Below, piece by piece: positions 1-32,250 of a stretch of 54,996 nucleotides of DNA. Location: positions 1 to 54,996 of the IMG/VR virus record IMGVR_UViG_3300037424_001001, one strand, 5' to 3'. How positions within the stretch are numbered: the first letter of the stretch is position 1; the number at the start of each line of letters is the position of its first letter. The translations under genes were made by a program, and so were the position numbers. This DNA comes from a virus (taxonomy: Duplodnaviria; Caudoviricetes). A model generated the notes under the pieces. It was not told where the DNA came from, did not search any database, and was given only the letters and a program-made list of their open reading frames with translations.

Positions 1-217
1 TCCCCTGTTCTGCGGCCTGTCGCCTAAGGTCGTTTAGCCTCGGGTCTTCATCTATAAGGCCTAAGGCGATCAAGGTCGAAAAAGGTGAAAGCTTGTTGCG
101 AACATCGGCGCAAAAATCAGATAACCCGTCAATTAAGAGGGAATTGCTACCGCCTGTGGTTCCCGAAGTGTACGTGGTATCAACATCCTTCAGCACAGTG
201 CATCTTTTCGTTTTCAT
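1..217 (-). CDS. Hypothetical protein, partial (starts inside attC1, runs off the left end)
   Basis: ATG at 217 preceded by AAGGGG. The frame MKTKRCTVLKDVDTTYTSGTTGGSNSLLIDGLSDFCADVRNKLSPF... is open to position 1. Confidence 0.45.
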   Translation of the reverse strand, partial: MKTKRCTVLKDVDTTYTSGTTGGSNSLLIDGLSDFCADVRNKLSPFSTLIALGLIDEDPRLNDLRRQAAEQG

Positions 218-250
218 AATCCGCAATCCCCTTATCTCTGATCGTTATCT
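119..250 (+). other. attC site 1 (132 bp)
   Basis: R'' AGATAAC 119-125; arms TAAGAGGGAATTGC / GCAATCCCCTTA; R' GTTATCT 244-250. Confidence 0.8.
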
Positions 251-544
251 GAGTAATGACGGATGGTAGTCGTCGCCGTAAATTTCCTTCGCTGCCTGTT
301 CTCTAGCGGAGCGCATTTCTTCTCGGCTTGCGTCTCTCCGACATGCCCACAGATGCCCAAATTTCTCTTCCATTAATTCCACGGCTCGGGCCTCCATCTG
401 AGCACACATATCATCGCTCTCGGAAAATCCCTCGTATAGTGGTTGTATTCGGGAATCTAGCCGGAAAAAATCATTCAAAATTTCTTCCGGCATATTGGCC
501 GCAGCCAAGATTAATGCTACCTCCATGCAATCATTTTTATTCAT
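245..544 (-). CDS. Cassette hypothetical protein (99 aa)
   Basis: GGAG SD between R'' and the ATG; TAA stop lies in R' GTTATCT. Confidence 0.8.
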   Translation of the reverse strand: MNKNDCMEVALILAAANMPEEILNDFFRLDSRIQPLYEGFSESDDMCAQMEARAVELMEEKFGHLWACRRDASREEMRSAREQAAKEIYGDDYHPSLLR

Positions 545-558
545 GGTGTCTCCAAATC

Positions 559-662
559 AGATAACAATGGGTTCGAGCCGACGTTCAACTTTCGTGTGAC
601 CCTGAAAAACTCGGTGGTCGGCCAGCGTCCCGTCGCGCTGGCTCAACCCTGATCCGGTAGAC
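559..662 (+). other. attC site 2 (104 bp), R' mutated (GGTAGAC)
   Basis: R'' AGATAAC; L'' GTTCGAGC vs L' GCTCAAC (extra C on the left arm); R' is GGTAGAC instead of GTTAGAC. Confidence 0.8.
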
Positions 663-878
663 GCAAGCTTTTTGCTCGCACCAGTTGAGGTCGAAATTTC
701 TCATGGCCTTGTCCGGCGTATCGCCGAACCCGGCAACGCCCTCTTGTAGATTCTCGCCATAGAGGGCGCACCACTGGTTACCGTCAACAAACAACCGTGG
801 TCGCAACAACAGGGATGGGGCGCTTTGGTCGCAGGCGTTGGCATACATCTGATTCCAATAATCTTGCTCGCAGGCCAT
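585..878 (-). CDS. Cassette hypothetical protein (DGNQWCALYGENLQEG motif), C-terminus extended into attC2
   Basis: SD GGAG. The expected TAA in R' reads TAC, so the ORF continues into attC2. Confidence 0.8.
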   Translation of the reverse strand: MACEQDYWNQMYANACDQSAPSLLLRPRLFVDGNQWCALYGENLQEGVAGFGDTPDKAMRNFDLNWCEQKACVYRIRVEPARRDAGRPPSFSGSHES

Positions 879-897
879 ATTCTCTCCTAAGATTTGC

Positions 898-985
898 GTC
901 TAACCCAAGATTTCAAGCCGGACGGAATAAAGGGTTTCCCTTCGATTCGGCGGCACACCGCCGCCGCTTAAATCTACCGTTAGGC
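898..985 (+). other. attC site 3 (88 bp)
   Basis: R'' GTCTAAC; L'' TTTCAAGC vs L' GCTTAAA; R' GTTAGGC. Confidence 0.9.
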
Positions 986-1159
986 GCTTCGATTACCACC
1001 AGTTTTGTCAATAACGATTGGGTCGTTGTGCTGCATGAGTAGCCTCCTGAAATGTTCTTGGTTGGTATATTCCGCGTCCGGGTCTATCCCATTGCGTAGA
1101 AAAAATAGGTCTTCAAGTTGCATTCCTGCTGCTTCTTCGTGGGCTTCTCTGTTGGTCAT
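980..1159 (-). CDS. Cassette hypothetical protein (59 aa, MTNREAHEE...)
   Basis: Start re-called to ATG 1159 with SD GGAG; stop in R'. Confidence 0.7.
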   Translation of the reverse strand: MTNREAHEEAAGMQLEDLFFLRNGIDPDAEYTNQEHFRRLLMQHNDPIVIDKTGGNRSA

Positions 1160-1180
1160 ATTCTCCACCTTGGTAAAATC

Positions 1181-1283
1181 GCCTAACAATAAAATAAACA
1201 CGGACTGAACACAGTCAGTGTTGCCCCGAATGGGGCGGTAGTTCGCCAGTAGCACGTCGCAGCCGGTTATTTTGGCGTTATGC
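1181..1283 (+). other. attC site 4 (103 bp)
   Basis: R'' GCCTAAC; arms AATAAACACGGACTG / CAGCCGGTTATT; R' GTTATGC. Confidence 0.88.
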
Positions 1284-1628
1284 CTTTTTTGCTCTGGCCT
1301 CTTGCAAATAGCGCGCATGGCTTCCGTACGTTTGCGCCACCCCTTCGCAATGGCTTTGCAGAGACCGCAACGCACGAGCAAGAGTCTCCCCCTCGGCTCT
1401 AGCCAGCCACTTCGCTTTTTTACCAAAACCGGCGCTTTTCACTTCGTAAACAGCTATTTCAAGCGGCTTTTCTCGGCGCTCAATCATCAACGTTGAAAGC
1501 CGATTGAACCCGCTCGACTGAATCCCCGTTGCCGACAAATATACTTCTGGATTGCCGGATTTATGGATTGTCCAGGTGTAGCCTGGCATGACCTTCTCTA
1601 ACTCTTTTCTGAATTCTGCTGAGTTCAT
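1278..1628 (-). CDS. Cassette hypothetical protein (116 aa)
   Basis: ORF fills the cassette and stops in R'. The flanks GTTATGCCTT / AAGGCATAAC are a 10-bp complement. Confidence 0.8.
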   Translation of the reverse strand: MNSAEFRKELEKVMPGYTWTIHKSGNPEVYLSATGIQSSGFNRLSTLMIERREKPLEIAVYEVKSAGFGKKAKWLARAEGETLARALRSLQSHCEGVAQTYGSHARYLQEARAKKA

Positions 1629-1653
1629 GACTTTTCCCTTTCTACCTCCGAAG

Positions 1654-1758
1654 GCATAACCATAAAATGCAGTCGGACCGAATAGTGCTTTGCTACTCTC
1701 GAAAATTTCAGCGGGTTTCCGTCAGTTCGTCGCGGTCCGCTGATCAAATGCGTTAGGC
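1654..1758 (+). other. attC site 5 (105 bp)
   Basis: R'' GCATAAC; arms ATGCAGTCGGACCG / CGGTCCGCTGAT; R' GTTAGGC. Confidence 0.9.
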
Positions 1759-1962
1759 ATCTGAAATAATGGCGTGGAGCCAATCATTTATGTCGCTCAT
1801 TCGGTCACAAAGCTCTCTGCATTTCTGTATTTGTGCATCCGCTCCGACTTCCCCCCTTTCTTTCAGCCGAGCAAACAGCCGCTCTAGGTCATCAATATCA
1901 CCAACACACTCGTTCAATAGTCTTTTAGATTCTTCCGCAGCCCTTTTGACAAGCATTGCCAT
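1753..1962 (-). CDS. Cassette hypothetical helical protein (69 aa, MAMLVKRAAEE...)
   Basis: Start re-called to 1962 with SD GAGGAG; stop in R'. Confidence 0.75.
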   Translation of the reverse strand: MAMLVKRAAEESKRLLNECVGDIDDLERLFARLKERGEVGADAQIQKCRELCDRMSDINDWLHAIISDA

Positions 1963-1985
1963 GTAAACTCTCCTCTGTGGTAAAT

Positions 1986-2072
1986 GCCTAACCACTAAAA
2001 TGAAGGCGGACGGTGAGCCACTGGTGTTATTACCTGCGCTCTACCGCCGCCGCTTATTTTTGACCGTTATGT
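1986..2072 (+). other. attC site 6 (87 bp)
   Basis: R'' GCCTAAC; arms AATGAAGGCGGACGG / CCGCCGCTTATT; R' GTTATGT. Confidence 0.88.
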
Positions 2073-2348
2073 GAAAGAAACATCCCCGTCCCAAACGAGT
2101 TTTTGGGGTTTGAATTGGGGGTTTAGCCACCGGTTGATATTTTCGCGGATCTTGCCGCCGTCGACAAATTCGGCATCTTCCGGTGCGACAAACTCGGCTT
2201 CGTAGTAGTAGCGGTTACCGGCATTTCGTCCGCAGGGTCTACGTAAAATCCGCGTCGGTTCCAACGTCACAGATTTAACTAGGTTTTGATATGAGTTGGC
2301 GGAGACATACTTCCGATCCTTTGTTGCATACGCAATGTTCAATTTCAT
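2067..2348 (-). CDS. Cassette hypothetical protein (93 aa, MKLNIAYATK...)
   Basis: Start re-called to 2348 with SD GGAGG; stop in R'. Confidence 0.75.
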   Translation of the reverse strand: MKLNIAYATKDRKYVSANSYQNLVKSVTLEPTRILRRPCGRNAGNRYYYEAEFVAPEDAEFVDGGKIRENINRWLNPQFKPQKLVWDGDVSFT

Positions 2349-2365
2349 TTCTGCCTCCGTGAAAC

Positions 2366-2470
2366 ACATAACCAAAAAATTAACGGGACCGAATACGCTA
2401 TTAGCTTCCCCACAATGGGGCGCTGCTCCCCGGGCCGTCCCGTCGCGGTCCCGTTATCATGGCGTTAGGC
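2366..2470 (+). other. attC site 7 (105 bp)
   Basis: R'' ACATAAC; arms TAACGGGACCG / CGGTCCCGTTA; R' GTTAGGC. Confidence 0.88.
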
Positions 2471-2598
2471 TACAAAATAGTGCGCCTCAGCAGCAAGAAC
2501 CACTCTGCAACGCTGCGCCCCGTGAAAAATATAATTGCGATTCGTACCGACTCAGACACCATCGCACCGACAAAAAACCAAGCAATCCCGCTTTTCAT
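2470..2598 (-). CDS. Small hydrophobic protein (42 aa), second gene of a two-gene cassette
   Basis: MKSGIAWFFVGAMVSESVRIAIIFFTGRSVAEWFLLLRRTIL; ATGA overlap with the upstream stop; its TAG abuts R'. Confidence 0.55.
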   Translation of the reverse strand: MKSGIAWFFVGAMVSESVRIAIIFFTGRSVAEWFLLLRRTIL

Positions 2599-2861
2599 TT
2601 GTGCGCCTTTTTGAAAATCACGCTGCAACCGTCGTTACGCCTTAACGTCCTACCGTCCGGAGTTTCAACCTCAAACGGCATGCACCGATGTTTTTCGCCA
2701 GAGCAATCTTTCCGCCAGTCACAAGCTCGGCAAATATTTCCGCCGTCTCTTGGCTTCGCATCGCTCTTTAGTTCCGCGAAATACCCCGGTGGCGCTTCTC
2801 GGGGGTCTATCCTCGGTTCGGTGTTTTCTGTAAATAGCGTCAACTGCATCTCCGTCTCCAT
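2595..2861 (-). CDS. Cassette Cys-rich hypothetical protein (88 aa)
   Basis: CRACDW...C...C motif; ORF lies within the cassette. Confidence 0.75.
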   Translation of the reverse strand: METEMQLTLFTENTEPRIDPREAPPGYFAELKSDAKPRDGGNICRACDWRKDCSGEKHRCMPFEVETPDGRTLRRNDGCSVIFKKAHK

Positions 2862-2876
2862 TTTTCACCTAAAAAC

Positions 2877-2983
2877 GCCTAACCAAAAGATGCAGGCGGA
2901 CCGAAATAGGGCTCTGCTGGTCTCGAAAATCTCAGCGGGTTGCGTCTACTCGCGTCGCGGTCCGCTGATCAAAAGCGTTAGGC
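2877..2983 (+). other. attC site 8 (107 bp), close relative of attC5
   Basis: R'' GCCTAAC; arms GATGCAGGCGGACCG / CGGTCCGCTGATC; R' GTTAGGC. Confidence 0.9.
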
Positions 2984-3568
2984 TCTCATGGGCATCAACA
3001 TCCCGTCACCATCGTCCCACTTGAAATAGTTGCCCTTTTCCGGCTCAGTCGGCGCCAGTTTCATCCCGGGCAACTCTTTCAGCATGGTGAGATAATGAGA
3101 CGAAAATCCGGTGCATCCAATTGCGATTCTCTTCGTCACAATCTTCCTTCCCGTTCCGATACAGCTTGAGCAAATTGTGGCATTGCCAGAAACGGAGCCA
3201 TCACCACCGCACGTCTGGCACTCGCACTCATATTCGTTGTAGTCATTTTCCAGCATAACCTCGCCGTCGCCGTCACACTCCGGACACTTTGAAGTTTTGC
3301 CGACCCCTTTGCAAACAGTGCAGGTTTCTGGTTCCGGCTGGGGAAAATCGGGTATTCCAGCCAGTGCGGCGACAATATCTGGACCAACACCGTCAAACAT
3401 GACGGCGGCTTTTTCATTCAAGGCGTCCCACTCCGGCACGTCGGCCAGCCGTGGCACTCTCACCAAAACATGACCATTGGTGGCGTACGAGTAGAGGCCA
3501 AACGAGAAGGGGCCGCACATCTTCGGGTGTTCTGGCTGAGAAAAGACGCTAAGTTTTTCTTGGTTCAT
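2978..3568 (-). CDS. Cassette protein with DnaJ-type CxxCxGxG zinc finger and beta-clamp-like motifs
   Basis: Four CxxCxGxG repeats; ATNGH, FSSHYL and C-terminal LMPMR motifs; stop in R'. Confidence 0.75.
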   Translation of the reverse strand: MNQEKLSVFSQPEHPKMCGPFSFGLYSYATNGHVLVRVPRLADVPEWDALNEKAAVMFDGVGPDIVAALAGIPDFPQPEPETCTVCKGVGKTSKCPECDGDGEVMLENDYNEYECECQTCGGDGSVSGNATICSSCIGTGRKIVTKRIAIGCTGFSSHYLTMLKELPGMKLAPTEPEKGNYFKWDDGDGMLMPMRA

Positions 3569-3590
3569 CGCTATGTCCTCCGTGATAAGA

Positions 3591-3695
3591 GCCTAACCAT
3601 ACGATCAAGCGGGACTGGCTCAACATGGGCGGTTCTCGATAAGGGCATCTGGTCGCAGCCATTCTGCGCCAGCCCCTTATCTCTGATCGTTAGAT
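3591..3695 (+). other. attC site 9 (105 bp)
   Basis: R'' GCCTAAC; arms GATCAAGCGGGACTGGC / GCCAGCCCCTTATC (VCR-like arms); R' GTTAGAT. Confidence 0.9.
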
Positions 3696-3923
3696 GCCCT
3701 GAATATCGGAAACATCGATCCATCTCTCTGCCTTGCTAAACAGATTGATGATTTTCACTCCACGTCCGGAGACACACAAAACCTCAGCATTGTCACACGC
3801 CTTCATGTTGCCCTTTTTGAAAACGATGACACTCCCAACGGTTAATGTGGCTGCAAGCATTTTCTCGGCTGTTCGTTCCACTTCGCGGGCCATCTTAAAT
3901 TGGGTCTTAATGTTATTGAGCAT
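3690..3923 (-). CDS. Cassette hypothetical protein (77 aa)
   Basis: SD AAGGAG; stop in R'. Confidence 0.75.
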   Translation of the reverse strand: MLNNIKTQFKMAREVERTAEKMLAATLTVGSVIVFKKGNMKACDNAEVLCVSGRGVKIINLFSKAERWIDVSDIQGI

Positions 3924-3944
3924 TTCGTTTCTCCTTGGCGTAGC

Positions 3945-4049
3945 ATCTAACCATCCAATTCAGCGAACGGAATTGGCTTGACTGCTCCTCGTTAAAATCT
4001 CGTTGATCCTCGCCCGGCCCGTCGCCGTGCGCTGATCGGGGCGTTTTCA
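3945..4049 (+). other. attC site 10 (terminal, R' = GTTTTCA)
   Basis: R'' ATCTAAC; L'' AATTCAGC vs L' GCTGATC; only the GTT of R' is conserved. Confidence 0.8.
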
Positions 4050-4292
4050 ATCCTCGGGGACAAAGACAAGGCGGGCGATCCGACACTTGCCGTAGGTGCC
4101 TTCGATGTACGCCTTTCGCTTCAAAATATCCGTCAAGTTTGCACTTTTGACGTACTGCTCAAAGACAAGGGGGCCACCGTCATCGTGAAACACCCTTCCT
4201 GCGATGTCCACAGGGCGGTCATTCTCTGCGACAACAACATAAATTTCATTCTCTGACCAGTGGTGCGTTGCCTCCTCCTTTTCTGCTTGGGT
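4047..4292 (-). pseudogene. 81-codon open frame lacking an N-terminal ATG, in frame behind the rusA stop
   Basis: TQAEKEEATHHWSENEIYVVVAENDRPV...RLVFVPED* directly follows the TAA at 4293-4295. Confidence 0.4.
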
Positions 4293-4691
4293 TTATTCCT
4301 CGAACGGGTGAATTTCCATGATGATGTGCGAATTGCCGGGGCTGATCCCTCCCCACCGGAAGTTCGTTCCGGCGATGATCTTCTTGTGGTCCTCCTTCAG
4401 CACCTTATACTCGACCAGGGCATCACAGGCGAACTTATCGGCAACCGAAAGGATGTTGTTGGTATCAAGCTGCCGGTTGTTTTCCCAAAACAGGCGATAG
4501 GTCAGCAGGTAGGGGGGCGGGAACGGGATCACTAGGCCGCGGTATTGAAGCATCTGCTCCTTGAAGGCGATCTTGGCCTTGTTGAGAACCTGGAAGTGAG
4601 CGGTTCGGTACGCGTTCAGGTTGACCCGGAATTCCTTCTTGGCCGAAACCCATACGACAATCGGAAGTTTCAGGCGAATCACGCTATCCAT
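4293..4691 (-). CDS. rusA: RusA-like Holliday junction resolvase
   Basis: LDTNN...DAL...EDH acidic motifs; size and position in the recombination module. Confidence 0.7.
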   Translation of the reverse strand: MDSVIRLKLPIVVWVSAKKEFRVNLNAYRTAHFQVLNKAKIAFKEQMLQYRGLVIPFPPPYLLTYRLFWENNRQLDTNNILSVADKFACDALVEYKVLKEDHKKIIAGTNFRWGGISPGNSHIIMEIHPFEE

Positions 4692-5113
4692 GCCGCGCCC
4701 CCCTCGTCAGTAAGGACCTGGATGCAGAAGATACCGAAGGCGGGGCACATCAGCGCGCCGGGGAGAAGGGGGGTAATGGCTCCGGCCTGGCTCAAGATTG
4801 CGATCTCCCCCATGGTCAGGCTTCGCGGCTGGCCGTAGTTCTCGCTCTCTTTCCCGGAAAGGATCGATTGCCAGTCCTCCGGGGCCTGCTCACCGTCGAT
4901 TCTGTCACCGACGGTCTTGCATGTGTCGCACAGAACCGGGGGCAACTTCCTTCTCCTTTCGTCGACATCGACCATAACGGTAGCCTCGCAGCCACATTTG
5001 AGGCAATATGTCGGCGCCTCCCGTAGCCAGTCCTTCGCCTTCGATTCCAGTTTCGGCATTGCCTCTACCCTCCCTTTCATAAAAAAGAATCCCTCCGAAT
5101 ATTGCACCTTCAC
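4679..5113 (-). CDS. Hypothetical protein with CxxC pairs
   Basis: Co-oriented ORF; start uncertain. Confidence 0.6.
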   Translation of the reverse strand: MKVQYSEGFFFMKGRVEAMPKLESKAKDWLREAPTYCLKCGCEATVMVDVDERRRKLPPVLCDTCKTVGDRIDGEQAPEDWQSILSGKESENYGQPRSLTMGEIAILSQAGAITPLLPGALMCPAFGIFCIQVLTDEGGAAWIA

Positions 5114-5172
5114 ATTTTCAATCGATGGCCGGGACCGATTGCCCCGGCCACCTCAGAAAATATCAAGAGCGG

Positions 5173-5907
5173 TTAGTTGATGGTAAAGGTGGGATTCTCC
5201 CGAAGACAAACTTCTTCATGTTTCAGGATAGCGGCCCGGATCTCCCGCTTCAGGGTCTTCTTGTCGCACCCCATGGCGTCCAGGTCAAACTTGACGCTGG
5301 TCATGATCTCGTCGGTGATCTGTGCCGAGATCGTTGCCGGGTCAGGCGTTCCGACCGTGGCGCCGGTTTCGTCCCTTTCGACGGTGACGATGTAGGGATA
5401 GGGTGTCGTGAAACCGGCCAGCGTCAACGACCCGGCGACATCCCGGACTTCACCGAGAGCTTCGAGAAGGTCGACATACCGCGTCACGGTAAAGACCTCG
5501 ATGTCCTTGGCCTCTCCTTCCGGGGCGAGAGCATCGACGGTTTCCTGCTCGTCGAGATTCAACTGACGCTCCCAGGGGTGGATTTTCTCGATTTCCACCG
5601 TCTCGTAGCTGTCGAGCCGGACCAGGCGTTTCTCGTTGCGGTCCCAGTCGTAGTGCCATTGGCAGTCGACGGGACGAGACTCGCGCCCTTCCCGGATTCT
5701 TGCGGCGAGATCCCCGGCGGTGGCGTCCTTGGCGTCGATCCTGCCCTTGAACTGCTTCTTGATCGTGTCGATCTCCAGTTCCAGATTGGTCTTGTCTTTC
5801 AACTCCTGCGCCAGTTTCTCGCCATAGTGCTGCTTTTCCTCGTTGGTCAAAACCACCAGTAATTCACGATTTTCGATCCCTCGAAGGGCCTGCTTGATGC
5901 CGCTCAT
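5173..5907 (-). CDS. Hypothetical phage protein (244 aa)
   Basis: SD AAGGA; typical codon usage. Confidence 0.75.
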   Translation of the reverse strand: MSGIKQALRGIENRELLVVLTNEEKQHYGEKLAQELKDKTNLELEIDTIKKQFKGRIDAKDATAGDLAARIREGRESRPVDCQWHYDWDRNEKRLVRLDSYETVEIEKIHPWERQLNLDEQETVDALAPEGEAKDIEVFTVTRYVDLLEALGEVRDVAGSLTLAGFTTPYPYIVTVERDETGATVGTPDPATISAQITDEIMTSVKFDLDAMGCDKKTLKREIRAAILKHEEVCLRENPTFTIN

Positions 5908-5937
5908 ATACTCTGTCCTTTCCTGTAACGTAGGTTG

Positions 5938-6795
5938 TTAACGGAAGTGCGAAGTCGTCGTGTCATCGACCCGGCACCCGAACTGCTCCAGATTCATACC
6001 CGCCTCGGCCAGCCCCTTGAGGATTTTGGCAACGCCTTCGACGGCTCCCGGGGGGATGATGCCATCGGCAACACCGCGGCACAGGGCCTTGATGTCGACG
6101 ACCTCGACGGTAACGGTCCTGCGCCCGACGACGCCCTTGGTCTTTGCTGCAGGCGGTGCCGCAGGTGCCGCAACCGGGGGAGGAGGCGCAGCGGCCCGAC
6201 GCTCGGCCTCCCGGCGCAGGTCTTCGGCGCGCTTCTGGTGACCGGCAATCTTCGCCTCGAGGATGGAGATCTGCGACCGCATCAGACTGGCCTCTTCGTC
6301 GCTCGTCTCGGGAGCTTCGAGTTGATCCCGCAGTTCGGCCAGGTGGGCAGAGTCGTCGCCGGCCTTGGCGAGAATGGCGCCGACCTTGCGCTCGGCAGCG
6401 GCAATGCGCTTGGCCTGCTCTTTTCTGGCCTCCTCGGCGGCGAGGCGTCTTTCTTCTTCCTCCCGGCGCTTCTCGGCCAGCAGGAAGACGTTGGCCGTGT
6501 CGGTGACAATTGTTTTCGCCTCGCCGAGCGGGTCGAGGACCTTCTTCTCCTGGGCGACGGCGATCTTGTGGGCGGCAAAGGCGGCGTCCTTGATCGGCTT
6601 GTGGTGCTCCTGCACGAACTTTATCCGCTCGTTGAGTTGTCTCACGAAATCCCGGGCAACCTCCAACATGGGGATGGTGGAGATCTGCAGGGCCCTTGCC
6701 TGGTCGACAATCGTCAAGGCCACCTGCTCCTGAAGCGGCTGCTCCTCGGGCAGGGCCGGCAGTACGATGGTTTTTCCCTCCGTGGTCTTTTTCAT
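5938..6795 (-). CDS. Coiled-coil phage protein (285 aa)
   Basis: SD GAGGAG; Glu/Ala/Arg-rich helices. Confidence 0.75.
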   Translation of the reverse strand: MKKTTEGKTIVLPALPEEQPLQEQVALTIVDQARALQISTIPMLEVARDFVRQLNERIKFVQEHHKPIKDAAFAAHKIAVAQEKKVLDPLGEAKTIVTDTANVFLLAEKRREEEERRLAAEEARKEQAKRIAAAERKVGAILAKAGDDSAHLAELRDQLEAPETSDEEASLMRSQISILEAKIAGHQKRAEDLRREAERRAAAPPPPVAAPAAPPAAKTKGVVGRRTVTVEVVDIKALCRGVADGIIPPGAVEGVAKILKGLAEAGMNLEQFGCRVDDTTTSHFR

Positions 6796-11027: not shown

Positions 11028-14000
11028 CTAAAACGCGGCGCCGTATCGCTCGACGGCCAGTTTTTGCAGCCGATTCCGTTCGGCGTTGAGCTTGTCGACG
11101 CGGGACTGTTTCTCTTCCCGGGTCAGTTCCCTTGAGCTCCACACCAGGCGAATCCGGTTATTGATGTCCTGCAAACGCTTCTGCACTGCGGCCAGTTGAG
11201 GACGGGCCCGGAGCTTGGCCAGGTTCTCTCTGAGCATCGTGTCGGCGTCCTCCTTGCGTCCCCGCTTGCGATACTCCTTGATGGTGCTGTAGATCTTGGC
11301 CGTTTCGACGGTCATCTCGTAGAACTCGTTGCTGTACTTGGTGCTCCGCGGACTGTCCTCCCGCACAAAACGATTCAGCACAGGAATGTCCTGGACGCTC
11401 CCGGCGGGGATCTCCTCGGCGAGTCCTGTTTTTCTTAAAATAGCATCGGAGGCCATCAGGGCGTAGGTCGAAACCGCCGACGTATAGCCGTAGAGAAGAT
11501 GTCCTAGCCGCTTGGGACTGCGCAGGAAGGCCGGGGCGCTGTCGGGCATACCCTCGGCCAGCAGTCGGAGGCTTTCGCTTGTCCAGGGGTCATACTGGGC
11601 TTCAGGCTCCAACCGTTGGAGCCGTTGCGAGACAATCGGAGAGTCGGAGAAGAACGATTTGTTGGCCACTTCCTCGACGATGGGCTTGAACAATTGCGGA
11701 ATTGGATTGAAGGCGAATGTGTCGAGGAACATTTGCACCATGCGATTGACGAACATATCCCCTTCTTTTTCCCGGATCAGCTCCATCATCCGCTCGGGAA
11801 TGGTGGAGAATATCGCGCCGACTTCAAAGGGCTTGGGCATCCGGAAGTGACCGAAGGGGGTGAAGAAGTGCCAGTAGAGATCCTTGTCCCACTCGGGGAG
11901 GTCTTCGTAATCGGGATTGCCCATATTGATTGCGTAAAGCGCCAGGGTTGCGCCCGTCAGCATCAGCCCCTTGAGGGCAAAAGAGCGGGGGTTTTCCTTG
12001 ACACCGCGGTAAAGCCGGTCGAGGCCCTGAATCCTTGCATTCAAGAAAGGAACCGTCTGCACCATGAAGCGCATGACCGCGTAATCACCTGAGCGGGTGA
12101 AGTTGAGCGTATCCATGGCCTGGTAAGCGGCTTCGCCGATACTGCCCCCGGCTTTCAGGGTCTTGTCGAAGACCACCATGCGGTTTGCCGACTCGGTTGC
12201 GGCGCCGATCTTCTGGTAAAAACGCCATGCCTTGCGGGGGGAGTGCAGGACCGTATCCTTGAAGCGGGTCGACTCCATCGCCTTGACCTGATCGGCGATC
12301 ATATCCCGAGCCCCTTCTTTGCGCACATGATAGTACCCGCCGCCGCCGGCTCCGGCCGCCATCATGGCCATCAGCTTCTCGTCCTTGCCGAGGGCATTGA
12401 TGAATTCCTTGCCAGCATGAAGAAAGGGAATCATGTTGGTGTCCGTGACCACCCATGTCGAGAGGGTATCCCGGAGGAAGTTGGCCATCATGAAGGCCGG
12501 GTTGACGGTGACCGAATGGGTCAGGAGCTTCTTGGCCCCCTTCATCAGGGTCAGCATCCCGTCGGTTGTGGTCGGGCCCATGGCCGTCATGGAGCGCAGG
12601 AGCAGCGGATCATGCACCCGGAAATAGCGGGGCTTGCCGCCGGAGAGGACGGTGATCACGTCCGGGCCCTGCGGCGCCCACCGGGCAAGGAGCTTGCTCC
12701 AGGCGCTCAGTTCGCTGTCCATGAATTCACCGACGCCCAGGTGTCCGATCTCCGCCACGTTGCCCCAGCTTGTTTCGTTGTCGGGGAGAATGCCCGAGGC
12801 TTCGAGGGCCTTGCGGATCATGCTGTTCGGGACCATGACCGGCTTCCACGTTTTGCTGATCTCCTCGATGGCGCCTGTTCCCTCGGCCATGTCGACGATC
12901 CGCTGTGCTGCGATGTTTTTGAAGGAAGAATCGATCAGCTTGGCGGCGTTGAGAAGCATGTTCTCCATGACGTTGATCTTGCCGGCGCCGCCCTTGAGCC
13001 GCATGATTCCGCTTTTCTGGTTGGCGAGGCCGCGTTTCTTGAACGGGCCCTTGACGTTCTCCGCACCCTGGATGTCTTCGACCACCCGGTAAAAAGGCAC
13101 ATAGTCGTTCTTCGACCATTCGGCCCGGGCTTCTCCGTCGATAACGCCCGTTGCTTCGGCCAGGTCGAGGATCTTGTTGTTAAAGGTCTGGTACTCGTCA
13201 AAGATTTGACGGAAGAGCGGGTATTGCTGTTCGAGCGGGAGGAGAGCGTCAATCTGATCCTGGGTGAAATTGTTCTCCCGGCCTTCTTTGATCAGGCGAT
13301 TGGCGCGCACCGCTGCGGCCCATCCTTCCCACAGGCGCAAAAGGTTCCCGTCGGCGTGATTGGTCAGCGGGGCGAAGATGTCGGCAAAGCCTTTCCCGCT
13401 CTTGGCGTTTTCCAGATGGAAAGATCCGTTGCGGAAGAGCAGGGCGCCGCGGAGCATGACCGCGGCCATAACCGAATCGAGGTTTCTCGTCAGTCGGGCG
13501 GCCTTGCTCGGGGAGATTGAGGCGTCCATCACCTGCCCGAAAGTGTCCTCCTCGTAGCTTTCGATGGATGCAAAATCATCCATCATCCCCTGCCGTACCG
13601 CCAGAGGGTCCACCCTGGCCGTGAAGTTGTACAATATCGTTTTGGCGCGCTCCGCCCAGGTCATATCCGCCGAGGGAGTTGCCATGGTGGCGGCCAGGGC
13701 GGCTTCCTGTTCGGGGGTGCCGGTGGCGCGCTTGCGTTGAAAGGTCGGATAAACGCCCGGGGTCATGCCGGATTTTTTGAAGGCGTCAGGAGCCGTGACG
13801 GACATCTCCCTGTAGCTGCCTTCGACGGCGCCGGGTTCGACGTATTGGGAGAACTGCGTCTCCTGCGACCCGAGTACGCCGTCATACCCTTCCTGCTCCG
13901 CCTCCCGCTTGAAGGCTTCGATAGCACCTTCCGGCGTCGCGGCCCCCGAAAGGTCAGTGCCGACCCATCGCTGCCCGTTGAAGATAAGAAATCCGCCGTC

Positions 14001-17000
14001 CTCCATCATCTCCTCATAGCCGGAGTAGCTGGCGCTGCGCTCTTCCTGCGGGATGTCACGCCACGCCACGGCGCGGAGCGCGATGGACCCACCACCAGGT
14101 GTCCCGAGAACCACGTCCTCAAACTCAACGCTGTTCGCCGCGATCTCGTCGAGGACTTCCTGCTTAGTGTAAACCCCCTTGGCATCGAGTCCCGGGAGAA
14201 TGGTGGCGATTTCGTCGTCAGTGACCCCGTTGTTTTTCAGCATATTCTTGAGCGCAGGAGCAAGGATCTTCCCGCCGACCTTGTTCCGCACAACCTCTTC
14301 GAGCTTTGAGTAGAAGGCTTGCGGGGAGGAAAGCGGTCCACGCTGTTCCGTGACATTGCCAGGACCATACGGCCGCCGGCCGGACACCGGACCGCCTCCG
14401 CCGAGGGTGCGTTTCCCCCGGGCGATCATCGCCACCAGATCGGCGTCGGTGTATTTCCATGCGGTGAAGCCGTTCTTGACCAGCCACGTCTTGATTGCCT
14501 CGACGGCGCGCTGGATCAGCCTCGGGCGCTCGTTACGCTCGGCCACCCGGGCAAGGACTTCCTCCGCAGCCTTGAGGCGCTGCAGCTTGTCGGTCAGGTC
14601 GAACTTGTAATCCTTGGCGACTTCCTGCATTCGGGCCGGGAAGGCCAGCGCCACTTGATTGAGTACCGGGATAATGTCGGCGCCCAACAGGGACCGGGGG
14701 CCGATATGACCGTACCCTTCGTGGAAGACGGCGCGCTGCAGATCTCCGGCAGAAGAGAACTGGTCGGCCACTAGGTAAATGTCGCGGCCGGTTGTCTCGT
14801 CCAGCAGTGCCTTGATTGCCTGCTCCCCGTTCATGGTCCCGTTCATGGCGGCCGCCTTCAGGTGCGGGGGCAGCCCTTCGGTATTCGGCACCACATGGAA
14901 GGAGATCGAGGAGGGGAACGCCTGAACCGGGCGGGCAATGGCCTTTTCTGCGGCAGCAATCGACATGCCGGGACCGGTGGCGCCGCGAGAGAAGGTTGCA
15001 CCAGGGCCTTCGCGCAAAGACTCAATCCCTGATGGGACCTCCGACTTGATCGGCATGACGTAGCCGACGACGGAATCTTTCGAGAAAATAGCGAGGGGGT
15101 TGTCTTTCCCTCCGTCATTCGTCTGCTTAAATGTCGCATCAGGGTACAGGTTCAAGATCAGGTCGTAATATTTGGCGTCAATGGGAGAGCCCTTGTCAAA
15201 CCAGATCCTTTTTTGCGTGTCGTTTTCAATAAAACCAATGACCTTGATGCTTTCCGTCGGCGAATAGTTTTTGGGGAAAAACTCCATGTCGATGTCGGAG
15301 ATAGGTTGACGCAACTGCTCTTCGAGTTTTGCCGGAGGCTTCCCTTCCAGCAGGTAATGGCCGTTGGAAAAAGCGGTCTTGCCGTTCATCGTGCCACGGA
15401 AAAGGGTGCGCGATCCGGGCATATTGGTGTTATTCGATTTTGTAACCTGAGCCCACTTGACGGGTTTGGCCTTGTATTTCAGGATTGACAGGCCGTCCTC
15501 TGCCGTCCTGCCCTCGTCGGGGTCCGCCGGGCGGCGATCTTGTTGCGAAAGGACAGAGATGTGCGCATCAGACTCCGGGATCTCGGGTTCTTTCTTTTCT
15601 TTCACCACAACTTCGGGGGCGTCAAACTCCCGGTCGTCATAGATCCGCATCCCCTGATCGTCCATGATCTCGTTGTAGGGGATAGCAACTTGGCCCCTCT
15701 CGTCGGAGGCCATGACGAACCATCCCGCGCTCGCCCAGCGATGGCCGGAAACGGTGAAGGTGGTATCTCCCCACACCACGTCGGTATCGACCGGGGCGCC
15801 GTTGCGCAACCAGGCCGGGGGCGGTACGGGGTTGGCTTCCATGTCAGAGGTGATGTCATGCACCAGTTCCTTCATGGCTTCCAGTTCGGTCTGCCGGCCA
15901 AAGGTCTCTTTGGAGATCTCATCCAGGCGCAGAAGGGAAGACTCAAACTCGGAGACTTTGCCCCGGGTACGATCTGTTGAACCGACAACTCCGCGGATAG
16001 CTGCCTCAAGGCTGGCGAGGCTCGACTTGTGTGACTGGACTTCGTGACTTCCGTTCGCGCCCTGGATTTCGGCTTTCAGTATTGCCTCTTCGCCGAGTTT
16101 GGGAAAAGAAGCCCTTACGGGGAAACCGTAGATGGTCCCGACTGCGACATTGTTGTCACCGATACGGACGTTTTTTTGGATAAACTTTGCAATGGCCTCG
16201 TCGGCATCCTTGCGGGTGGCGTAGTTCTTCCCGTTGATGTTGGCGGTAAAGGTCAGCATCGCCGTTTTGATCTTGGCGAGAATACCGTTCTCTCCGTCCA
16301 TAATTGCAAGACGCTCTTTCCCGCTGGCAATATCCCGGGTCAGGGTCTTGATCGTGGACTTGGCCTCAACGACGGCCTGTGTGTGCATCCGCTCCCGGCG
16401 CTGCAGGTGCTCGACCTTCTTCCGGGCTTTTTCGAGCAAGAGGATTCGCGGATCACCGGCGGCGTTGGCGAAGGTGTCGAGAATGTCGTTTTCCTCCTCG
16501 GCGGCTCCGTCGCCTTCGATCACTCGAATGTCATCGTTGGCGGTGAGGAATGCCTTGATGAATTTTGACTTGATGGCGAGAATTTGCCAACGGCGCCCGT
16601 CGAGACGATCGGTCAGGTAGCGGTACTCGAGAACGGTATTCCATTGGTTCCCCTGGCGGTGGCCGCGGCCGTTGCGCTGTTCCAGGTCCCCGGGCATGTA
16701 GGGGGCGTCCATGTGGTGCATGGCCCGGAGGTTCTTCTGCATATTGACCCCGACTCCGAGAGACTGGGTACTGCCGAAGACAATGCGGATCTCGGCGCGG
16801 TTCATCTTCTCGGAGATCTCCGCCCGCTTCTGTTTGCTGGTGCTGCCGTCGACTACTGCAATCTGTTCCCGGGGGATACCGGCCTGCACCAGGCGCTCAA
16901 CCATATCGTGAACGGTGGAGAAGACCTTGTAGCTCTGCGAGGTTTTATTCCCCGCAGAACCGACCGACCGTGTTGCCGTTCTTCCGAGTCCGCTGTTGGT

Positions 17001-20000
17001 AAAGACCGCCTGACAAGCGAGGTCATTGGAATGGTAGACCTCAAGAAGGTTCTTGATGGCGCGGGACGCCTTGCTGCTCGGTTCGTCAGGGACCTTCCCC
17101 TCTTGCCCGGCCAGTTTCTCGCCGTTGAGCAACCGGACATCGAAGGAGGCTTTGCCGGCCAGCCCTTCGGTGATGATCGGCGACTCCGGCCCGCCGGCGG
17201 CCATGGTCGCCTTGCGCTCTCTGCCGGACATCCCCCGCCAGGTTCTCGCGTAGCCCTGCAGGGTTTTGAATTCGGCGAGTTGCTGCACCGACATGTCGGC
17301 GTTGTCGGCAATCACCTTTTTGTACGGGCGGTCCATGGCGTTTTCGGAACGGCCGTTTTCCAGTTCGATTCGTTCTGATTCCGTCAGGGTCTTGTCGGAC
17401 AGGACCTTGCCGTTCTCGGTTTTGCGCGGGACCATTTCCGGCATGTTCTCGGAAAAGACCACATCCATGTACTGGCCGAACATGCGGCGCAGTTCCGGGA
17501 CGTTGATGAACGAGGCCAGGCGAACCACCGCTTCATATTCCGCTGCGGCGTTCAGTTCGACATCCTGAACCTCGGCGGCGAAGGAGCCAAACCATCCATC
17601 CCAACTATTCAGGCCGACATCCCGCATTTCATCTTCCATCAGGTAGCGCATCTGGTGGAAAACCTCGACGAGGGTATTGGTGATCGGCGTACCAGTGAAG
17701 GTATGGACGTTGCCGCCGCCGTTGTTGGCCCGGACATAGCTCGTCAGGAAGCGCAGCGCGATAGATCGGGAAGAGGTCTGTGCGTTGAGGCCCTTCATTC
17801 GCATCTTCGTGGAGAAGGGCGGCTTTTTGAATTCATGGGCCTCGTCGACGATGATCATGTCGATGCCCAACTCCTCGAAGGGGATGGCCGTCTCGCGGCT
17901 CGACCGCTGTGACGCCTTGTCGATGGAGGTGATAATCGCATTGCGGACCCGGACAAGATCCTTGGCCGTTGGGGACCGGAGCTTTTTCAGTTCCTCCGGA
18001 TCGTTGAGCATACTGTCGTCCCAGTGAACGCCATCCTCTTCGGCGGCTTCCCGGGCTTCCTGCTCCAGAAGATCAAGCTCTTCCTGTGCCATGGCCTGCA
18101 GGGTTTCCCGGGTCAGGGACAGGCGATCGATCAGCGAGTGCGGCATAACAATCAGGTCCCAGTCGTCATTGGCGATCTGCCGGAGTTTCACGTCAATGCT
18201 GTCGGGGGACAGGTTGTCGATGTAGAGAAGGGCCGCCCCGGGGTACATGGCCTGAATCTCGTTCTTCACCGTGGCGCTGTTGGCGTTGTGCGCTAAAAGA
18301 AGAGGCTTGCGGGCGATACCGTAGCGGCGAGACTCAATGGCCAGCCCGCCGATCGTGAAGGTCTTGCCGGTTCCGACCTGGTGCGCGTACAGGCCCTTGC
18401 GGGTGACGAGTCCCCGCCAGATAGCGTCGGCCTGGTGCTTGCGCATGTTCAGCGGTCCGTTCCCGAATTCAAGCGCCATCCCCTCGAACTTCAAAAAGGA
18501 CCCGTCATATTCCGGCTTTGCCCAGGCGTTACGGGCCTCGTTGTATTCCCGCTCCAGAACAATGCGCCGCTCGGGATCGGACCATACCCAGGTCTGAAAC
18601 TCTTCGCGGATTTTGGCGATACGCTCGTTGACCTCGGCGGTGGCTGTTTCGTCAACCACCATGTTCTTATTTTCGTCAGGGTGACGAATGGTCATCACCT
18701 GATTGCCGAGGGCGTAGGAAACGAGGCTCTTGAATTTGGCGAACTTGCTGCCGAATCCGGCTTCCGCTTCTGCCCGGTAGTTGAAGTCCGACGACAGGCG
18801 CAGCTTCCAGCGGCCGGCGATGAATTCGACCTTGACCTTTGCTGTGTCCTCTTTCGACAGGTTGAGCATGTGGCCAACGTAGGTGGCATAGACCTCGGGC
18901 GGGGTCCAGGTGGCGCCGAACTGCACCTCGATCTTGTGGTAGGGGATATCCTGCGGGATGACGCGCTTCAGGGCCTCGACGTTGCGGACCATGTGAGCGT
19001 TGCCGTCCTTGACTGCGGCCTCCGCTTCCCGGAGTTTTTCCCGGACATTGCCGGCAAGATAGAGATCGGTCGGGGTAATGTCGTGATCGATCGTCTCATA
19101 GGCGGCCCCGGATTCAACCAGGGACTTGCGGACTGCATCCTTGTCGGTTTTGGCAAGGGTCGCAATCTGCTCAAGGGTCGGGCTGACCTGCCCGTTACGG
19201 GCAAGGACAAAGGCATCCTCTACGCTCGGGTTGTCCTGGCGGGGCTTCGGTCGCATGGTGCTTTGCGAAAGAATCTTTGCCGGGCGGGTCTTGCCGTCGG
19301 GGCCTTCGATCTCAAGGGCGGCCAGTGCCGGGTAGAAAGGGTCGGTGACCCGCTTCAGGTACTTCATGCCGAAGCTGTCATTGAATCCGCTATGGTTCTT
19401 GGTGAAGGCGTCGTACTGCTTTTTCAACTCCTTCCGTGCGGCGGTGGCCTCTTCGCCGGCGCGCTCGACCTTGATCAGTTCCGCATACGCCTTACGCATG
19501 GCGATCAGGTCGCGCAACTGCGTCTCGCGGTTGGCCGTCTCAGCCTTGCCCTTGACGACGTAGGCCACAACCTGGTGCGCTGGCGCCAGGTGCTCACCGG
19601 AAACAACAAACAGGCCATCCTTGGTTTCGGTCAGCGCGCCCTCGCGGTCGTCGGTATGATTGGCGATGTAGGAGATCTGTTTGGTGCGGACATCCGGCTT
19701 GAAGGCGTCGACGGGAACAACCTCGATCATTTCGTCCAAGCGCGCCCGGATGTTCTGCGGGCGGGTGACGATCAGGCCGGGGCGGGCACTGATGGTGCCG
19801 TGTCCGAAGTCGACGGTGCCGAGAACGTGGCGGGGGTTTTCGTGGTAATACTTGTTGAGGAGAACAGGCGTCCCGCTCGGGGTGTTGAAGGGTTCGGATC
19901 CAATCCAGCTATCCGAAACGATGCCGAGGGGCTGGTCACGCTTGCGCAGGATGATGATGTCGGTCACTACGGCGGTGCCGGCGTATTCCTTGAACGCTCC

Positions 20001-31568: not shown

Positions 31569-31569
31569 G

Positions 31570-32250
31570 TCAGATAATCTCCGGATAGACTCTGTGGCGG
31601 TAGCTGGTGTTTCCTCGCAAGGCGTTGATCAGGGCCTCGCTGGTGCCTGTGCGGAAACGGCGCATGTGAAAATCGGAAAGGGGTAGGTCGGTCCACGCCT
31701 TCTTGCTCATGGAGAAGAGTTTCCCCAAAACGCCGCTGACGATCACCCCCTCATAGTCGTTGAGGACCCGGCTGTCGCCCCAGGGGGACAGGAGCGTCGG
31801 GCACAGGACGGCCTCAATTTGCAGTTCCCCGCCGGCAGCCGCGACATTGGGCACCGGATAGAGCCCGATTCTCTGCGGCGTCGGATGCAGGAAATACCGC
31901 GGCTGATTTCCCGAGGCGGCGTTGACCGGGCGGCGGACCATTGGCGCCAAGGGGGTGCTGTTGATCCAGGCCCGGTTGACGGCAAAGACTTCGTACCCGG
32001 CAGGGGAAACCATCGGGTATTCCGCCTGCCCGTCGACCATGATCACGGCCTCAAGCTCCTCAATGTGCGCCTGCGCCTTCTGGCAAAAGGTCCGCGTGAT
32101 GTCAAGCAGTGCCTTTTCGATCATCGGGTCCGGGCAACTGGGAACCTCCGGGGAGATCAGTGGGATCATACTGGCGAAGAGGCGGAAGGTCGCCGTGTCC
32201 GCTGGCGGGACTGGTATTGGAATGTCCGACGACTGCAGGATGATGGTCAT
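31570..32250 (-). CDS. Head-tail adaptor / tail tubular protein A-like
   Basis: P.CPDPMI...FC, G..EY and LYPVP motifs. Confidence 0.65.
   Translation of the reverse strand: MTIILQSSDIPIPVPPADTATFRLFASMIPLISPEVPSCPDPMIEKALLDITRTFCQKAQAHIEELEAVIMVDGQAEYPMVSPAGYEVFAVNRAWINSTPLAPMVRRPVNAASGNQPRYFLHPTPQRIGLYPVPNVAAAGGELQIEAVLCPTLLSPWGDSRVLNDYEGVIVSGVLGKLFSMSKKAWTDLPLSDFHMRRFRTGTSEALINALRGNTSYRHRVYPEII

Follow-up and report, generated by a model that had tools for sequence, protein, structure and literature searches.

A cassette array at one end of a phage contig

The window, by which we mean the whole 54,996-nt stretch of viral DNA analysed here, carries ten co-oriented attC sites at 119-4049, all with their top strand on the plus strand, and nine complete cassettes between them. 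The genome is podovirus-like. The array forms the downstream end of a minus-strand operon, following the genes for RecT, an exonuclease and RusA, and is co-directional with these upstream phage genes; the backbone gene transcribed immediately before it encodes a RusA-like resolvase (4293-4691, minus strand; phrog_1682, E 5e-22). We found no integrase or tyrosine recombinase on this 93%-complete contig, so the locus is not a complete integron (an IntI recognised by TIGR02249 plus an attI). Ten sites within 4 kb and no integrase nearby make it a CALIN, for which at least two co-oriented attC are expected.

The core boxes of attC sites are defined by the consensus RYYYAAC for R'' and GTTRRRY for R'. 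A passage of PMC5027507 quotes the same consensus. R'' ends in TAAC in all ten sites of the window and R' starts with GTT in nine, the exception being E1 with GGT; the strict 7-mer consensus is held by most sites. Between these inverted boxes lies an imperfect hairpin whose extrahelical bases are confined to the L'' arm. Arm alignments place one unpaired left-arm base in E1, two in E4 and E7 and three in E3 and E8; by eye, E0 and E2 have three each, and in E5, E6 and E9 the arm alignment is less clear. Because RNAalifold on a MAFFT alignment returned only 5 pairs, we supplied the consensus structure by hand. With two left-arm bulges it pairs 78.2% of the cells, against 28-43% when it is slid, and none of 500 shuffles reached 78.2%. 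From these sites we built a covariance model, R1, which is biased to their family.

All ten sites lie on the plus strand and range from 87 to 132 nt. E0 (119-250), the leftmost in the contig, is 132 nt long with a long loop, matches R1 at 115-254 (25.4 bits) and has a right arm similar to that of E8. It is followed by E1 (559-662; 52.7 bits), with its degenerate R'; E2 (898-985; 88 nt, 56.5 bits), of a short type that recurs in E5 (1986-2072; 60 bits); E3 (1181-1283; 82.8 bits); and E4 (1654-1758; 107 bits), which has a right-arm 20-mer in common with 4 other viral contigs. Next come E6 (2366-2470; 87.5 bits), E7 (2877-2983; 105.6 bits), E8 (3591-3695; 77.7 bits) and the last site, E9 (3945-4049; 78.2 bits), whose R', GTTTTCA, adjoins the phage backbone. 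E9 and E6 are near-identical to the first and second attC, respectively, of a phage integron, G014. Between neighbours, the R' of one site and the R'' of the next match at a mean of 6.4 of 8 variable positions, compared with 3.5 of 8 for the R''/R' pair of a single site. When metagenomes were scanned for the E4/E7 arm, the sole match was the contig from which one viral record derives. An Rfam search of the window gave nothing at gathering scores, and to our knowledge attC is absent from Rfam as a family; a default-seed repeat search of the window gave nothing useful.

The other end of the contig (54869-54996, minus strand) holds a GTTAGGG junction and the 3' part of an ORF ending at its TTA, with 22 of 41 amino acids identical to the first-cassette ORF next to intI in the viral record G006. 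Judged by this similarity, it is probably the same array resumed beyond the contig break, at its intI-proximal end. A circular join of the contig ends was considered separately and rejected: the reading frame breaks at the join and the end ORF lacks its N-terminal part, so the two ends do not adjoin.

Cassette genes and their strand

The preliminary description of this DNA had placed every cassette ORF on the minus strand, and all nine complete cassettes indeed have a minus-strand ATG ORF with an SD, the start codon lying 14-25 nt from R''. It had also put the SD just inside R''; the SD does adjoin R'', but on the cassette side, outside the box. Among the three longest plus-strand ORFs of each cassette, a single one has an SD (1790-1966), and it is not the longest. 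In seven of nine cassettes the preceding R' supplies the TAA stop as its TTA, at each of the positions that had been proposed (245, 980, 1278, 1753, 2067, 2978 and 3690); under a random frame (p = 1/3) the chance of at least seven such stops is 0.008. The layout along the plus strand is therefore TTA, minus-strand ORF, SD and R''-L''-loop-L'-G. In a canonical cassette the ORF is on the attC top strand with attC downstream, as our controls have it; here all nine are on the bottom strand. Since the genes are on the minus strand and the attC top strand is plus, the genes are antisense to attC and their mRNA carries the bottom-strand, recombinogenic site.

Two ORFs depart from the R' stop. c2 (585-878, 97 aa) extends 24 codons into E1 because the R' stop is lost: its in-frame codon at 657-659 is TAC, where an intact GTT would yield TAA. 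c7 (2595-2861, 88 aa) stops outside R' and is followed by a spacer of ~125 nt. The others, likewise on the minus strand, are c1 (245-544, 99 aa, ATG with GGAG, ending in the R' of E0 and without a family match), c3 (980-1159, 59 aa, ATG with GGAG), c4 (1278-1628, 116 aa), c5 (1753-1962, 69 aa), c6 (2067-2348, 93 aa, with two homologs apart from the window's own protein), c8 (2978-3568, 196 aa, Cys-rich, matching phrog_37414 over its full length) and c9 (3690-3923, 77 aa). c4 is a conserved hypothetical protein with 310 homologs at E <= 1e-3, and its family is an ordinary attC-less gene in both cultured Pseudomonas phage loci examined. A family search left seven of the nine ORFs without a match, and eight of the nine proteins were unmatched in the other viral loci compared; c8 was found in phage contigs L061 and L062.

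Cassette c8 shows the mobile unit. The segment 2976-3695, c8 plus E8, is 98.8% identical to L061 and 97.8% to L062, with unrelated flanks; the homologous stretch runs from the G|TT in the R' of E7 into the GTTA in that of E8, and ORF and site move as one cassette. Public contigs terminate at R' boxes or bridge them. c8 (2977-3689) lies inside longer contigs of runs X3 and X4, c5 sits behind a different attC in X4, and c2 is joined in X3 to a version of E1 with the intact GTT. At least three array contexts contain one and the same cassette. G|TT cassette junctions in several contexts, together with IntI beside related arrays, are indirect hints of IntI recombination via the folded bottom strand. 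IntI would move cassettes by the usual bottom-strand G|TT reaction, the enzyme being phage-encoded in the relatives and perhaps encoded by the host or a co-infecting phage in the present case.

Is this gene strand general among viral cassettes? The survey of ORF polarity suggested in the preliminary description found family matches for antisense ORFs alone in viral cassettes (9 of 43, against 0 of 26 sense) and for sense ORFs alone in bacterial ones (13 of 32, against 0 of 30 antisense). All 9 PHROG matches in viral cassettes outside L087 are antisense. In a test of the flanks, viral sites had a minus-strand start with SD by R'' in 25 of 36 cases and a stop at the TTA of R' in 19 of 36; bacterial sites had a plus-strand stop by R'' in 39 of 66 and a TAA inside R'' in 22 of 66. 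A plus-strand stop near R'' also occurs at 19 of 48 sites in IntI-linked viral loci. An ORF coverage test left 8 of 18 cassettes unclear, with both strands open in several, and called 1 of 34 antisense in the bacterial set. A strict SD test of both ends returned neither strand for 31 of 51 viral and 29 of 34 bacterial cassettes, SD motifs being weak in the bacterial set.

Phage-encoded integrases and alternative readings

The mirror-image layout recurs in more than 20 other viral contigs, and the proposal of a distinct phage-type cassette class whose mRNA equals the bottom strand is supported by several independent tests and extends to these contigs. Two viral records, G006 and G014, encode an IntI above the TIGR02249 cut-off with an adjacent attI. 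In G014 the attI G|TTA, where the first ORF ends, is 56 nt away from the start of intI, and no attC separates this ORF from intI; in phage-borne integrons the attI-nearest ORF lacks an attC 3' of it. Read in the direction of transcription, these integrons run cassettes, attI, intI, terminase, portal (intI, TerL, portal at 7 loci); the same design was found between phage genes in G011 and G013. Because the related arrays lie beside a phage IntI, directly upstream of terminase and portal, their cassettes are read towards intI. Our IntI tree holds few bacterial rows. The integrase of L067 was tried as an IntI and rejected as not being one. Some IMG/VR arrays are canonical (L087, L082). Cargo in viral cassettes includes DNA methyltransferases (as in L081), a Gam-like protein, a PAPS-reductase-like protein and an HD hydrolase. 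The earlier account had not foreseen that arrays of this kind are part of phage-encoded integrons, which carry an IntI of their own beside terminase.

Among 1-6000 we found no sigma-70-like promoters (3.8 expected). The idea that the cassettes would be silent from Pc and expressed in the phage operon fits the anatomy, because the array is promoterless and co-directional with the upstream genes, and the relatives' cassettes are read towards intI. Transcription would enter from the phage operon and run towards intI, not outward from Pc.

The antisense reading depends on attC polarity, and a misjudged polarity would turn the cassettes into ordinary sense ones with a stop in R'' and the minus strand as attC top. 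R boxes by themselves are symmetric, a stop within the TAAC box is also a canonical habit (the 22 of 66 bacterial sites above), and folding energies do not favour the minus strand, the bottom-strand fold being the more stable at 4 of 10 window sites; as bona fide bacterial sites give the same lack of bias (35 of 66), folding energy is uninformative for polarity. R1, run on the window as the covariance-model check that had been proposed, assigned attC to the plus strand, with no minus-strand match at E <= 1. In the bacterial genomes G001 and G003, respectively, it placed 15 of 15 matches on the plus strand beside a minus-strand intI and 15 of 15 on the minus strand beside a plus-strand intI, that is, 30 of 30 on the canonical strand. 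In 22 viral IntI loci, 48 of 48 matches were opposite to intI and 47 of 48 upstream of it. R1 missed 3 of 7 attC in class 1 integrons, and its 4 matches there with E < 0.001 were all on the resistance-gene strand, just downstream of qacG2, aac(6')-Ib4, aac(6')-Ib3 and aadA5. Its polarity thus matches the IntI geometry of 24 integrons as well as the class 1 resistance cassettes. The extra bases sit on the left arm, the mobile unit c8 is bounded by plus-strand R' boxes and not by R'', and G014 lacks an attC between its first ORF and intI. These four lines of evidence bear out the plus-strand assignment; a polarity error is already contradicted and very improbable. Least probable of all is that the minus-strand ORFs are not the genes and that real genes lie on the plus strand or the cassettes are gene-less. 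The unclear calls in the coverage test and the ORFs without family matches leave room for it, against which stand the SD and ATG on the minus strand of every cassette, the one SD among plus-strand candidates, the c8 and c4 matches and the antisense PHROG matches.

Host DNA is another conceivable source: the array could be a bacterial CALIN on a prophage flank, or a mis-assembly. Its position at the contig end and its lower GC (~50% versus ~60% in the phage) are compatible with a host flank or a chimera; attC repeats are points at which assemblies break, and one related record is flagged as a provirus. We consider this highly unlikely, since the cassette genes are contiguous and co-directional with RusA, a 28-kb public contig covers 4016-5200 and beyond, the same design lies between phage genes or beside TerL and portal elsewhere, and the right end carries a cassette-like junction. 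Moreover, we found this attC subtype in viral contigs and in none of the genomes of 185,579 bacterial species. It is improbable, too, that the hairpins act chiefly in the transcript, as attenuators, processing sites or stabilisers between cistrons, and are relics or mimics of attC no longer recombined. The contig has no integrase, and a run of at least four A just after R'', which is a U-tract after the hairpin on the coding strand, is found at 16 of 64 viral sites versus 4 of 65 bacterial ones. Yet the number of terminators in a simple scan did not exceed chance, identical cassettes recur in different arrays and break off exactly at G|TT, arrays of this kind have IntI encoded next to them, and an RNA role could coexist with recombination.

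Implications and relation to known integrons

We therefore read 119-4049 as a genuine integrase-less cassette array in a phage genome, with genes antisense to attC in a design that is standard among a broad set of phage-borne integrons (probability about 0.8). Antisense-cassette arrays beside a phage IntI, upstream of terminase and portal, are new here; we found no published description of them. A wider proposal, which we hold tentatively and at slightly less than even odds, is a widespread undescribed class of phage mirror integrons: a phage-lineage IntI directly upstream of terminase, the array upstream in the same operon, and a pool of bottom-strand genes recruited from ordinary phage genes, exchanged between unrelated phages, recombination-compatible with bacterial integrons yet separated from them at the level of expression, and shuffled perhaps fastest during phage replication, as a turnover engine for accessory and anti-defence genes. 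Cassette genesis at phage gene junctions may contribute, the only hint being the attC-less c4 family genes in Pseudomonas phages.

attC sites are known to fold at replication forks. With the gene co-oriented with replication and transcription, the bottom strand would lie on the lagging-strand template and the non-template strand, a placement that would favour attC folding and rapid cassette turnover during infection. Phage arrays offer a natural setting in which to test how folding and recombination of attC depend on its strand context with respect to transcription and replication. The two cassette pools would share recombination chemistry but be isolated in expression, because each would be silent in the other's platform; an expression barrier between them is predicted. 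Phages may possess site-specific swapping of small accessory genes, with their own IntI in some lineages.

How do these arrays compare with known systems? They share with bacterial integrons and CALINs the R''/R' boxes, the L''-arm extra bases, co-oriented sites, G|TT boundaries, an R' tail that fits the next R'', one short promoterless ORF per cassette and the attC length (87-132 nt here), and the phage relatives share the same IntI-attI-attC geometry. Unlike in bacterial integrons, the phage ORFs are all on the bottom strand with the stop in R' rather than R'', and the array sits inside a phage operon, transcribed towards intI/attI and not away from Pc. Vibrio superintegrons contain scattered reverse-oriented cassettes with their own promoters, for example toxin-antitoxin cassettes. 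These too have ORFs antisense to attC, a minority in bacterial arrays (1 of 34 in our coverage test), whereas the phage arrays are antisense throughout, promoterless and SD-coupled. A passage of PMC5027507 treats the fixed sense orientation of cassette genes to attC, by which expression from Pc is ensured, as an integron design rule. Phage arrays violate this rule systematically. It appears to be the direction in which the platform is transcribed, and not recombination chemistry, that sets cassette polarity, and a pipeline that expects ORFs on the attC strand would call phage cassette genes wrongly or overlook them.

Qi et al. 2023 (PMC9892861) describe CALINs without integrase in virulent phages, with 2-4 sites each, phage attC that IntI1 can recombine, and complete phage integrons that are fragments of bacterial ones. 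Integrase-less attC clusters and methyltransferase cargo (here in L081) are common to both sets; we found no mention there of ORFs antisense to attC or of a phage-lineage IntI next to terminase. In the inverted integron-integrase group (Treponema and others), as set out in a section of Cury et al. 2016 (PMC4889954), the direction of intI is also that of the cassette genes, just as in the related viral integrons. The viral integrons nevertheless fall outside that group: their intI is opposite to attC at all 48 sites, and in phages it is the ORFs that are flipped relative to attC.

Structure and top strand of the attC sites

Ten imperfect palindromes, the attC sites E0 to E9, lie on the + strand between window positions 119 and 4049, each 87-132 nt long. 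The 3' end of the R'' core box reads TAAC in all ten, and the R' core box starts with GTT in nine, E1 having GGT. When the left arm was aligned, site by site, to the reverse complement of the right arm, the unpaired bases were on the left arm in every clean alignment: E1 has a single one, E4 and E7 have two each, and E3 and E8 have three. E0 and E2 each have three extra left-arm bases as judged by eye from the sequence, and the arm alignment is less clear in E5, E6 and E9. Nivina et al. describe three extrahelical bases, spaced by 3 bp, in VCR2 and attCoxa2, and place them near the inner box L'' (PMC5027507). The structure was tested on an alignment of the nine clear window sites and four viral relatives. 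A structure drawn by hand, with two bulges on the left arm, pairs 78.2% of cells, versus 28-43% after a slide of 1-3 columns; it was equalled by 0 of 500 shuffles, and changes on both sides occur at seven pairs. Rfam gave no match. Right after R'', the spacers of E3-E7 carry a run of four or more A, which in coding-strand RNA becomes a U-tract behind the hairpin. Such runs are found at 16/64 viral vs 4/65 bacterial sites, and a role as attenuator or RNA 3' end is possible.

Since the R boxes are symmetric, polarity was tested in four further ways. R1, a covariance model built from the + strand of the window sites, was run on integrons whose geometry is fixed by the integrase. With a degenerate right-arm pattern, 24 loci were located in bacterial genomes spanning eight phyla, and two of the genomes behind them, G001 and G003, have IntI above the TIGR02249 cut-off. 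All 15 R1 matches in G001 are on + with intI on -, and all 15 in G003 are on - with intI on +, which is the canonical divergent layout. Plasmid class 1 integrons gave four R1 matches at E < 0.001, all on the gene strand and immediately downstream of qacG2, aac(6')-Ib4, aac(6')-Ib3 and aadA5; the model missed the attC sites of blaIMP-4, catB3 and dfrA17, and two matches with E > 3 fell elsewhere.

The boundaries of cassette c8 bear on the same question. Two other viral contigs contain window 2976-3695 (c8 and E8), with identities of 98.8% and 97.8% and with unrelated flanks; the homologous stretch opens at the E7 R' G|TT and stops within the GTTA of the E8 R'. Because homology breaks at R' boxes, the mobile unit is an ORF plus the attC that precedes it when read in the direction of the ORF. 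Taking the minus strand as attC top predicts instead a c8 unit bounded by R'' boxes (2883-3597), which is not what is seen. Contigs of four public sediment runs (X1-X4) show the same modularity: c8 (2977-3689) sits inside longer, otherwise unlike contigs in X3 and X4, c5 (1751-2069) lies behind a different attC in X4, and window 976-2069 follows another cassette and an E9-like attC in X1. Public assemblies of these runs fragment at attC sites and offer alternative neighbours for c2, c3-c5 and c8. Parts of the array (window 1-5200) are present in 24 metagenome runs on sediment or soil, which belong to 23 studies.

In G014, a viral record with its own IntI, the intI-proximal ORF has its end at the attI G|TTA. 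No attC separates this point from the start codon of intI, which is 56 nt away, and the first cassette starts with the reverse complement of the next attC's R'' tail. Over 8 variable positions, each R' agrees with the R'' of the following site at 6.4 on average, and the two boxes within a site agree at 3.5; the former agreement is expected of one-by-one cassette insertion and alone gives no polarity. The bottom-strand fold is the more stable at 35/66 bacterial and 4/10 window sites, and folding energy gave no information on the strand. As judged from sequence comparison, the window + strand is the attC top strand and the genes lie on the bottom strand. The preliminary description had assigned the top strand to +, and R1 against IntI geometry, the class 1 integrons, the c8 boundaries and the G014 first cassette all bear it out.

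Cassette genes and their genomic setting

Each of the nine complete cassettes has a minus-strand ATG ORF of 59-196 aa with a Shine-Dalgarno sequence (SD), its start codon 14-25 nt from R''. Among the three longest plus-strand candidates per cassette, an SD precedes only one, 1790-1966, which is not the longest. The TAA stop is the TTA of the preceding R' in 7/9 cassettes (probability of at least 7/9, 0.008 at p = 1/3), at the very positions that the preliminary description had listed for its claim that R' supplies the stop. In c2, the ORF extends 24 codons into E1 (585-659), whose R' is at 656-662. The c2 frame reads TAC at 657-659; with an intact GTT this codon would be TAA, so one T-to-G change removed both crossover triplet and stop, and this mutation probably freezes two cassettes together. 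A public contig has the c2 cassette behind an intact GTT.

The c8 product matches phrog_37414 end to end (E 7e-26), c6 has two homologs besides the window's own protein, and c4 has 310 at E <= 1e-3, the best 120 listed being 56-77% identical. In Pseudomonas Hollowayvirus phages, c4 homologs are tightly packed ordinary genes without attC; the best R1 score there was 8 bits, over the two loci, out of three, that were examined. These attC-less homologs are consistent with cassette recruitment from phage genes and do not indicate the route. A search for sigma-70-like promoters in window 1-6000 found 0, vs 3.8 expected.

The window is an entire IMG/VR virus record, linear, 54,996 bp long and with a CheckV completeness of 93%, and PHROG matches mark a tailed, podovirus-like phage: small and large terminase, portal/adaptor, major head protein, internal virion protein, endolysin, RecT, exonucleases and RusA. 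One 4776-aa ORF (11028-25358, -) lies within the structural region. No PF00589 match, and hence no tyrosine recombinase, was found in the window. GC is 0.50-0.51 over positions 1-4000, vs 0.56-0.63 over most of the remainder; a second low-GC stretch (30001-34000, 0.50-0.53) holds the internal virion protein and a 729-aa tail-fibre-like gene, and has no attC match. The array lies downstream of RusA in the window and of a phrog_947/RusA-like gene in G011 and G013, and the E9 R' abuts the phage backbone. Other array-bearing phages have few or no proteins in common with the window; G011 is of temperate type and has only cassette c8 in common with it.

At the right end, a GTTAGGG lies at 54869, and next to it is the 3' portion of a minus-strand ORF whose stop is the TTA of that GTTAGGG and which is identical at 22/41 aa to the first-cassette ORF adjoining intI in G006, another viral record with its own IntI. 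From these two features, the array probably crosses the contig break and continues at the right end. The contig ends, when compared, do not join up directly, and this phage has no intI past the 54869 junction.

Cassette polarity in viral and bacterial arrays

Identical scripts were applied to phage and bacterial cassettes, which were called antisense when the ORF runs opposite to the attC top strand and sense when it runs along that strand. The bacterial set held 66 R1 matches, five in L015 and L016 being dropped as regions also within L037 and L039; the first viral set held 36 matches in 12 loci, with L042 dropped as near-identical to L041 and with identical rows for L054 and L058. A minus-strand start with SD beside R'' flanks 25/36 viral vs 4/66 bacterial sites, and a stop exactly at the TTA of R' 19/36 vs 6/66. 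A plus-strand stop by R'' occurs at 4/36 vs 39/66 and a TAA inside R'' at 3/36 vs 22/66. By cassette coverage, bacteria gave 25 sense, 1 antisense and 8 unclear, and viruses 8 antisense, 8 unclear and 2 'sense', both artefacts of start-codon choice. A strict both-ends test yielded 19 antisense, 0 sense, 1 both and 31 neither in viruses vs 0 antisense, 5 sense and 29 neither in bacteria (Fisher p = 2e-5).

Homology by strand makes no assumption about start codons. Among 79 viral cassette ORFs compared with PHROGs (E <= 1e-4), those outside L087 matched in 9/43 antisense and 0/26 sense cases, and those of L087 in 2/5 sense and 0/5 antisense. Among 62 bacterial cassette ORFs, Pfam matches were 13/32 sense and 0/30 antisense. 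The survey proposed in the preliminary description, scoring ORF polarity at phage attC sites against bacterial integrons, returned mainly antisense viral and mainly sense bacterial cassettes by both flank and homology tests. The E4/E7 attC subtype was found in viral contigs only and in none of 185,579 bacterial species genomes, with a pattern that would have matched.

Among the bacterial loci, one ~85-nt attC is nearly identical across MAGs of eight phyla (L005-L028). L017, L019, L021, L025 and L027 also have the upstream cassette end in common; its ORF is 200 aa in four, and in L025 matches OmdA/YdeI. Together these features suggest a cassette of very wide distribution. In a Planctomycetia MAG (L030 and L037; G001:C1:1965591-1966578), the IntI match falls in two adjacent pieces (profile 1-115 and 116-315), suggesting a frameshift or assembly error.

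Phage-encoded integrons and known systems

IntI scored above the cut-off in 2/10 other array-bearing viral records, G006 and G014. Searching IMG/VR with the G014 IntI gave 148 relatives; 80 were kept, of which 31 were full-length or nearly so at >=38% identity. Of these 31 loci, 22 contained R1 sites, 48 in total, all of them opposite to the intI strand and 47 upstream of intI. The flank test classed 13 of the 22 loci as antisense-leaning, 4 as tied and 4 as sense-leaning (L087, L082, L086 and L073), with 1 no call. The identifier of L087 is that of an isolate genome, and the locus probably represents a bacterial integron. Antisense arrays occur across several IntI clades in a tree with few bacterial rows.

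Seven loci, whose IntI proteins are 43-100% identical to the G014 IntI, have on one strand the array, attI, intI, an optional gene of ~200-260 aa, large terminase (phrog_15) and portal (phrog_21). The intI gene is directly upstream of the terminase and portal genes in L068, L073, L074, L076, L079, L080 and L094; the last, low in GC and clear-cut, has a 262-aa ORF between attC and intI, co-directional with intI. Beside intI in G006 (L044, 5403-5957), two minus-strand ORFs, with no proper attC between them, lie between copies of a 12-nt direct repeat that ends in GTTA, an arrangement resembling a cassette with an attI-like site on either side. Cargo of other phage cassettes (L041, 287-997 and 1123-1617; L081, 1387-2220 and 3959-4213) comprises a PAPS-reductase-like protein, an HD phosphohydrolase, DNA methyltransferases and a Gam-like protein, which are typical phage accessory or anti-restriction functions.

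For these arrays, the sequences establish attC anatomy, polarity and gene strand, the modularity of cassettes joined at G|TT and, in relatives, linkage to IntI. IntI would recombine the cassettes via the attC bottom strand, and they may be expressed by read-through from the phage operon, towards intI. Phage and bacterial platforms would each leave the other's cassettes silent. Work on attC describes folding on the lagging-strand template, and the inverted polarity may therefore expose the recombinogenic strand during phage replication and transcription.

CALINs, attC clusters without integrase, and a few integrons have been reported in phages by Qi et al. 2023 (PMC9892861), the main-text parts of which, supplements aside, make no mention of antisense cassettes. 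In the literature covered, which lay mostly outside subscription journals, we met no account of phage integrons whose cassette polarity is inverted. As set out in Cury et al. 2016 (PMC4889954), the known inverted group has IntI oriented the same way as attC; the IntI-linked viral arrays described here differ from it in that the orientation of IntI is not that of attC.
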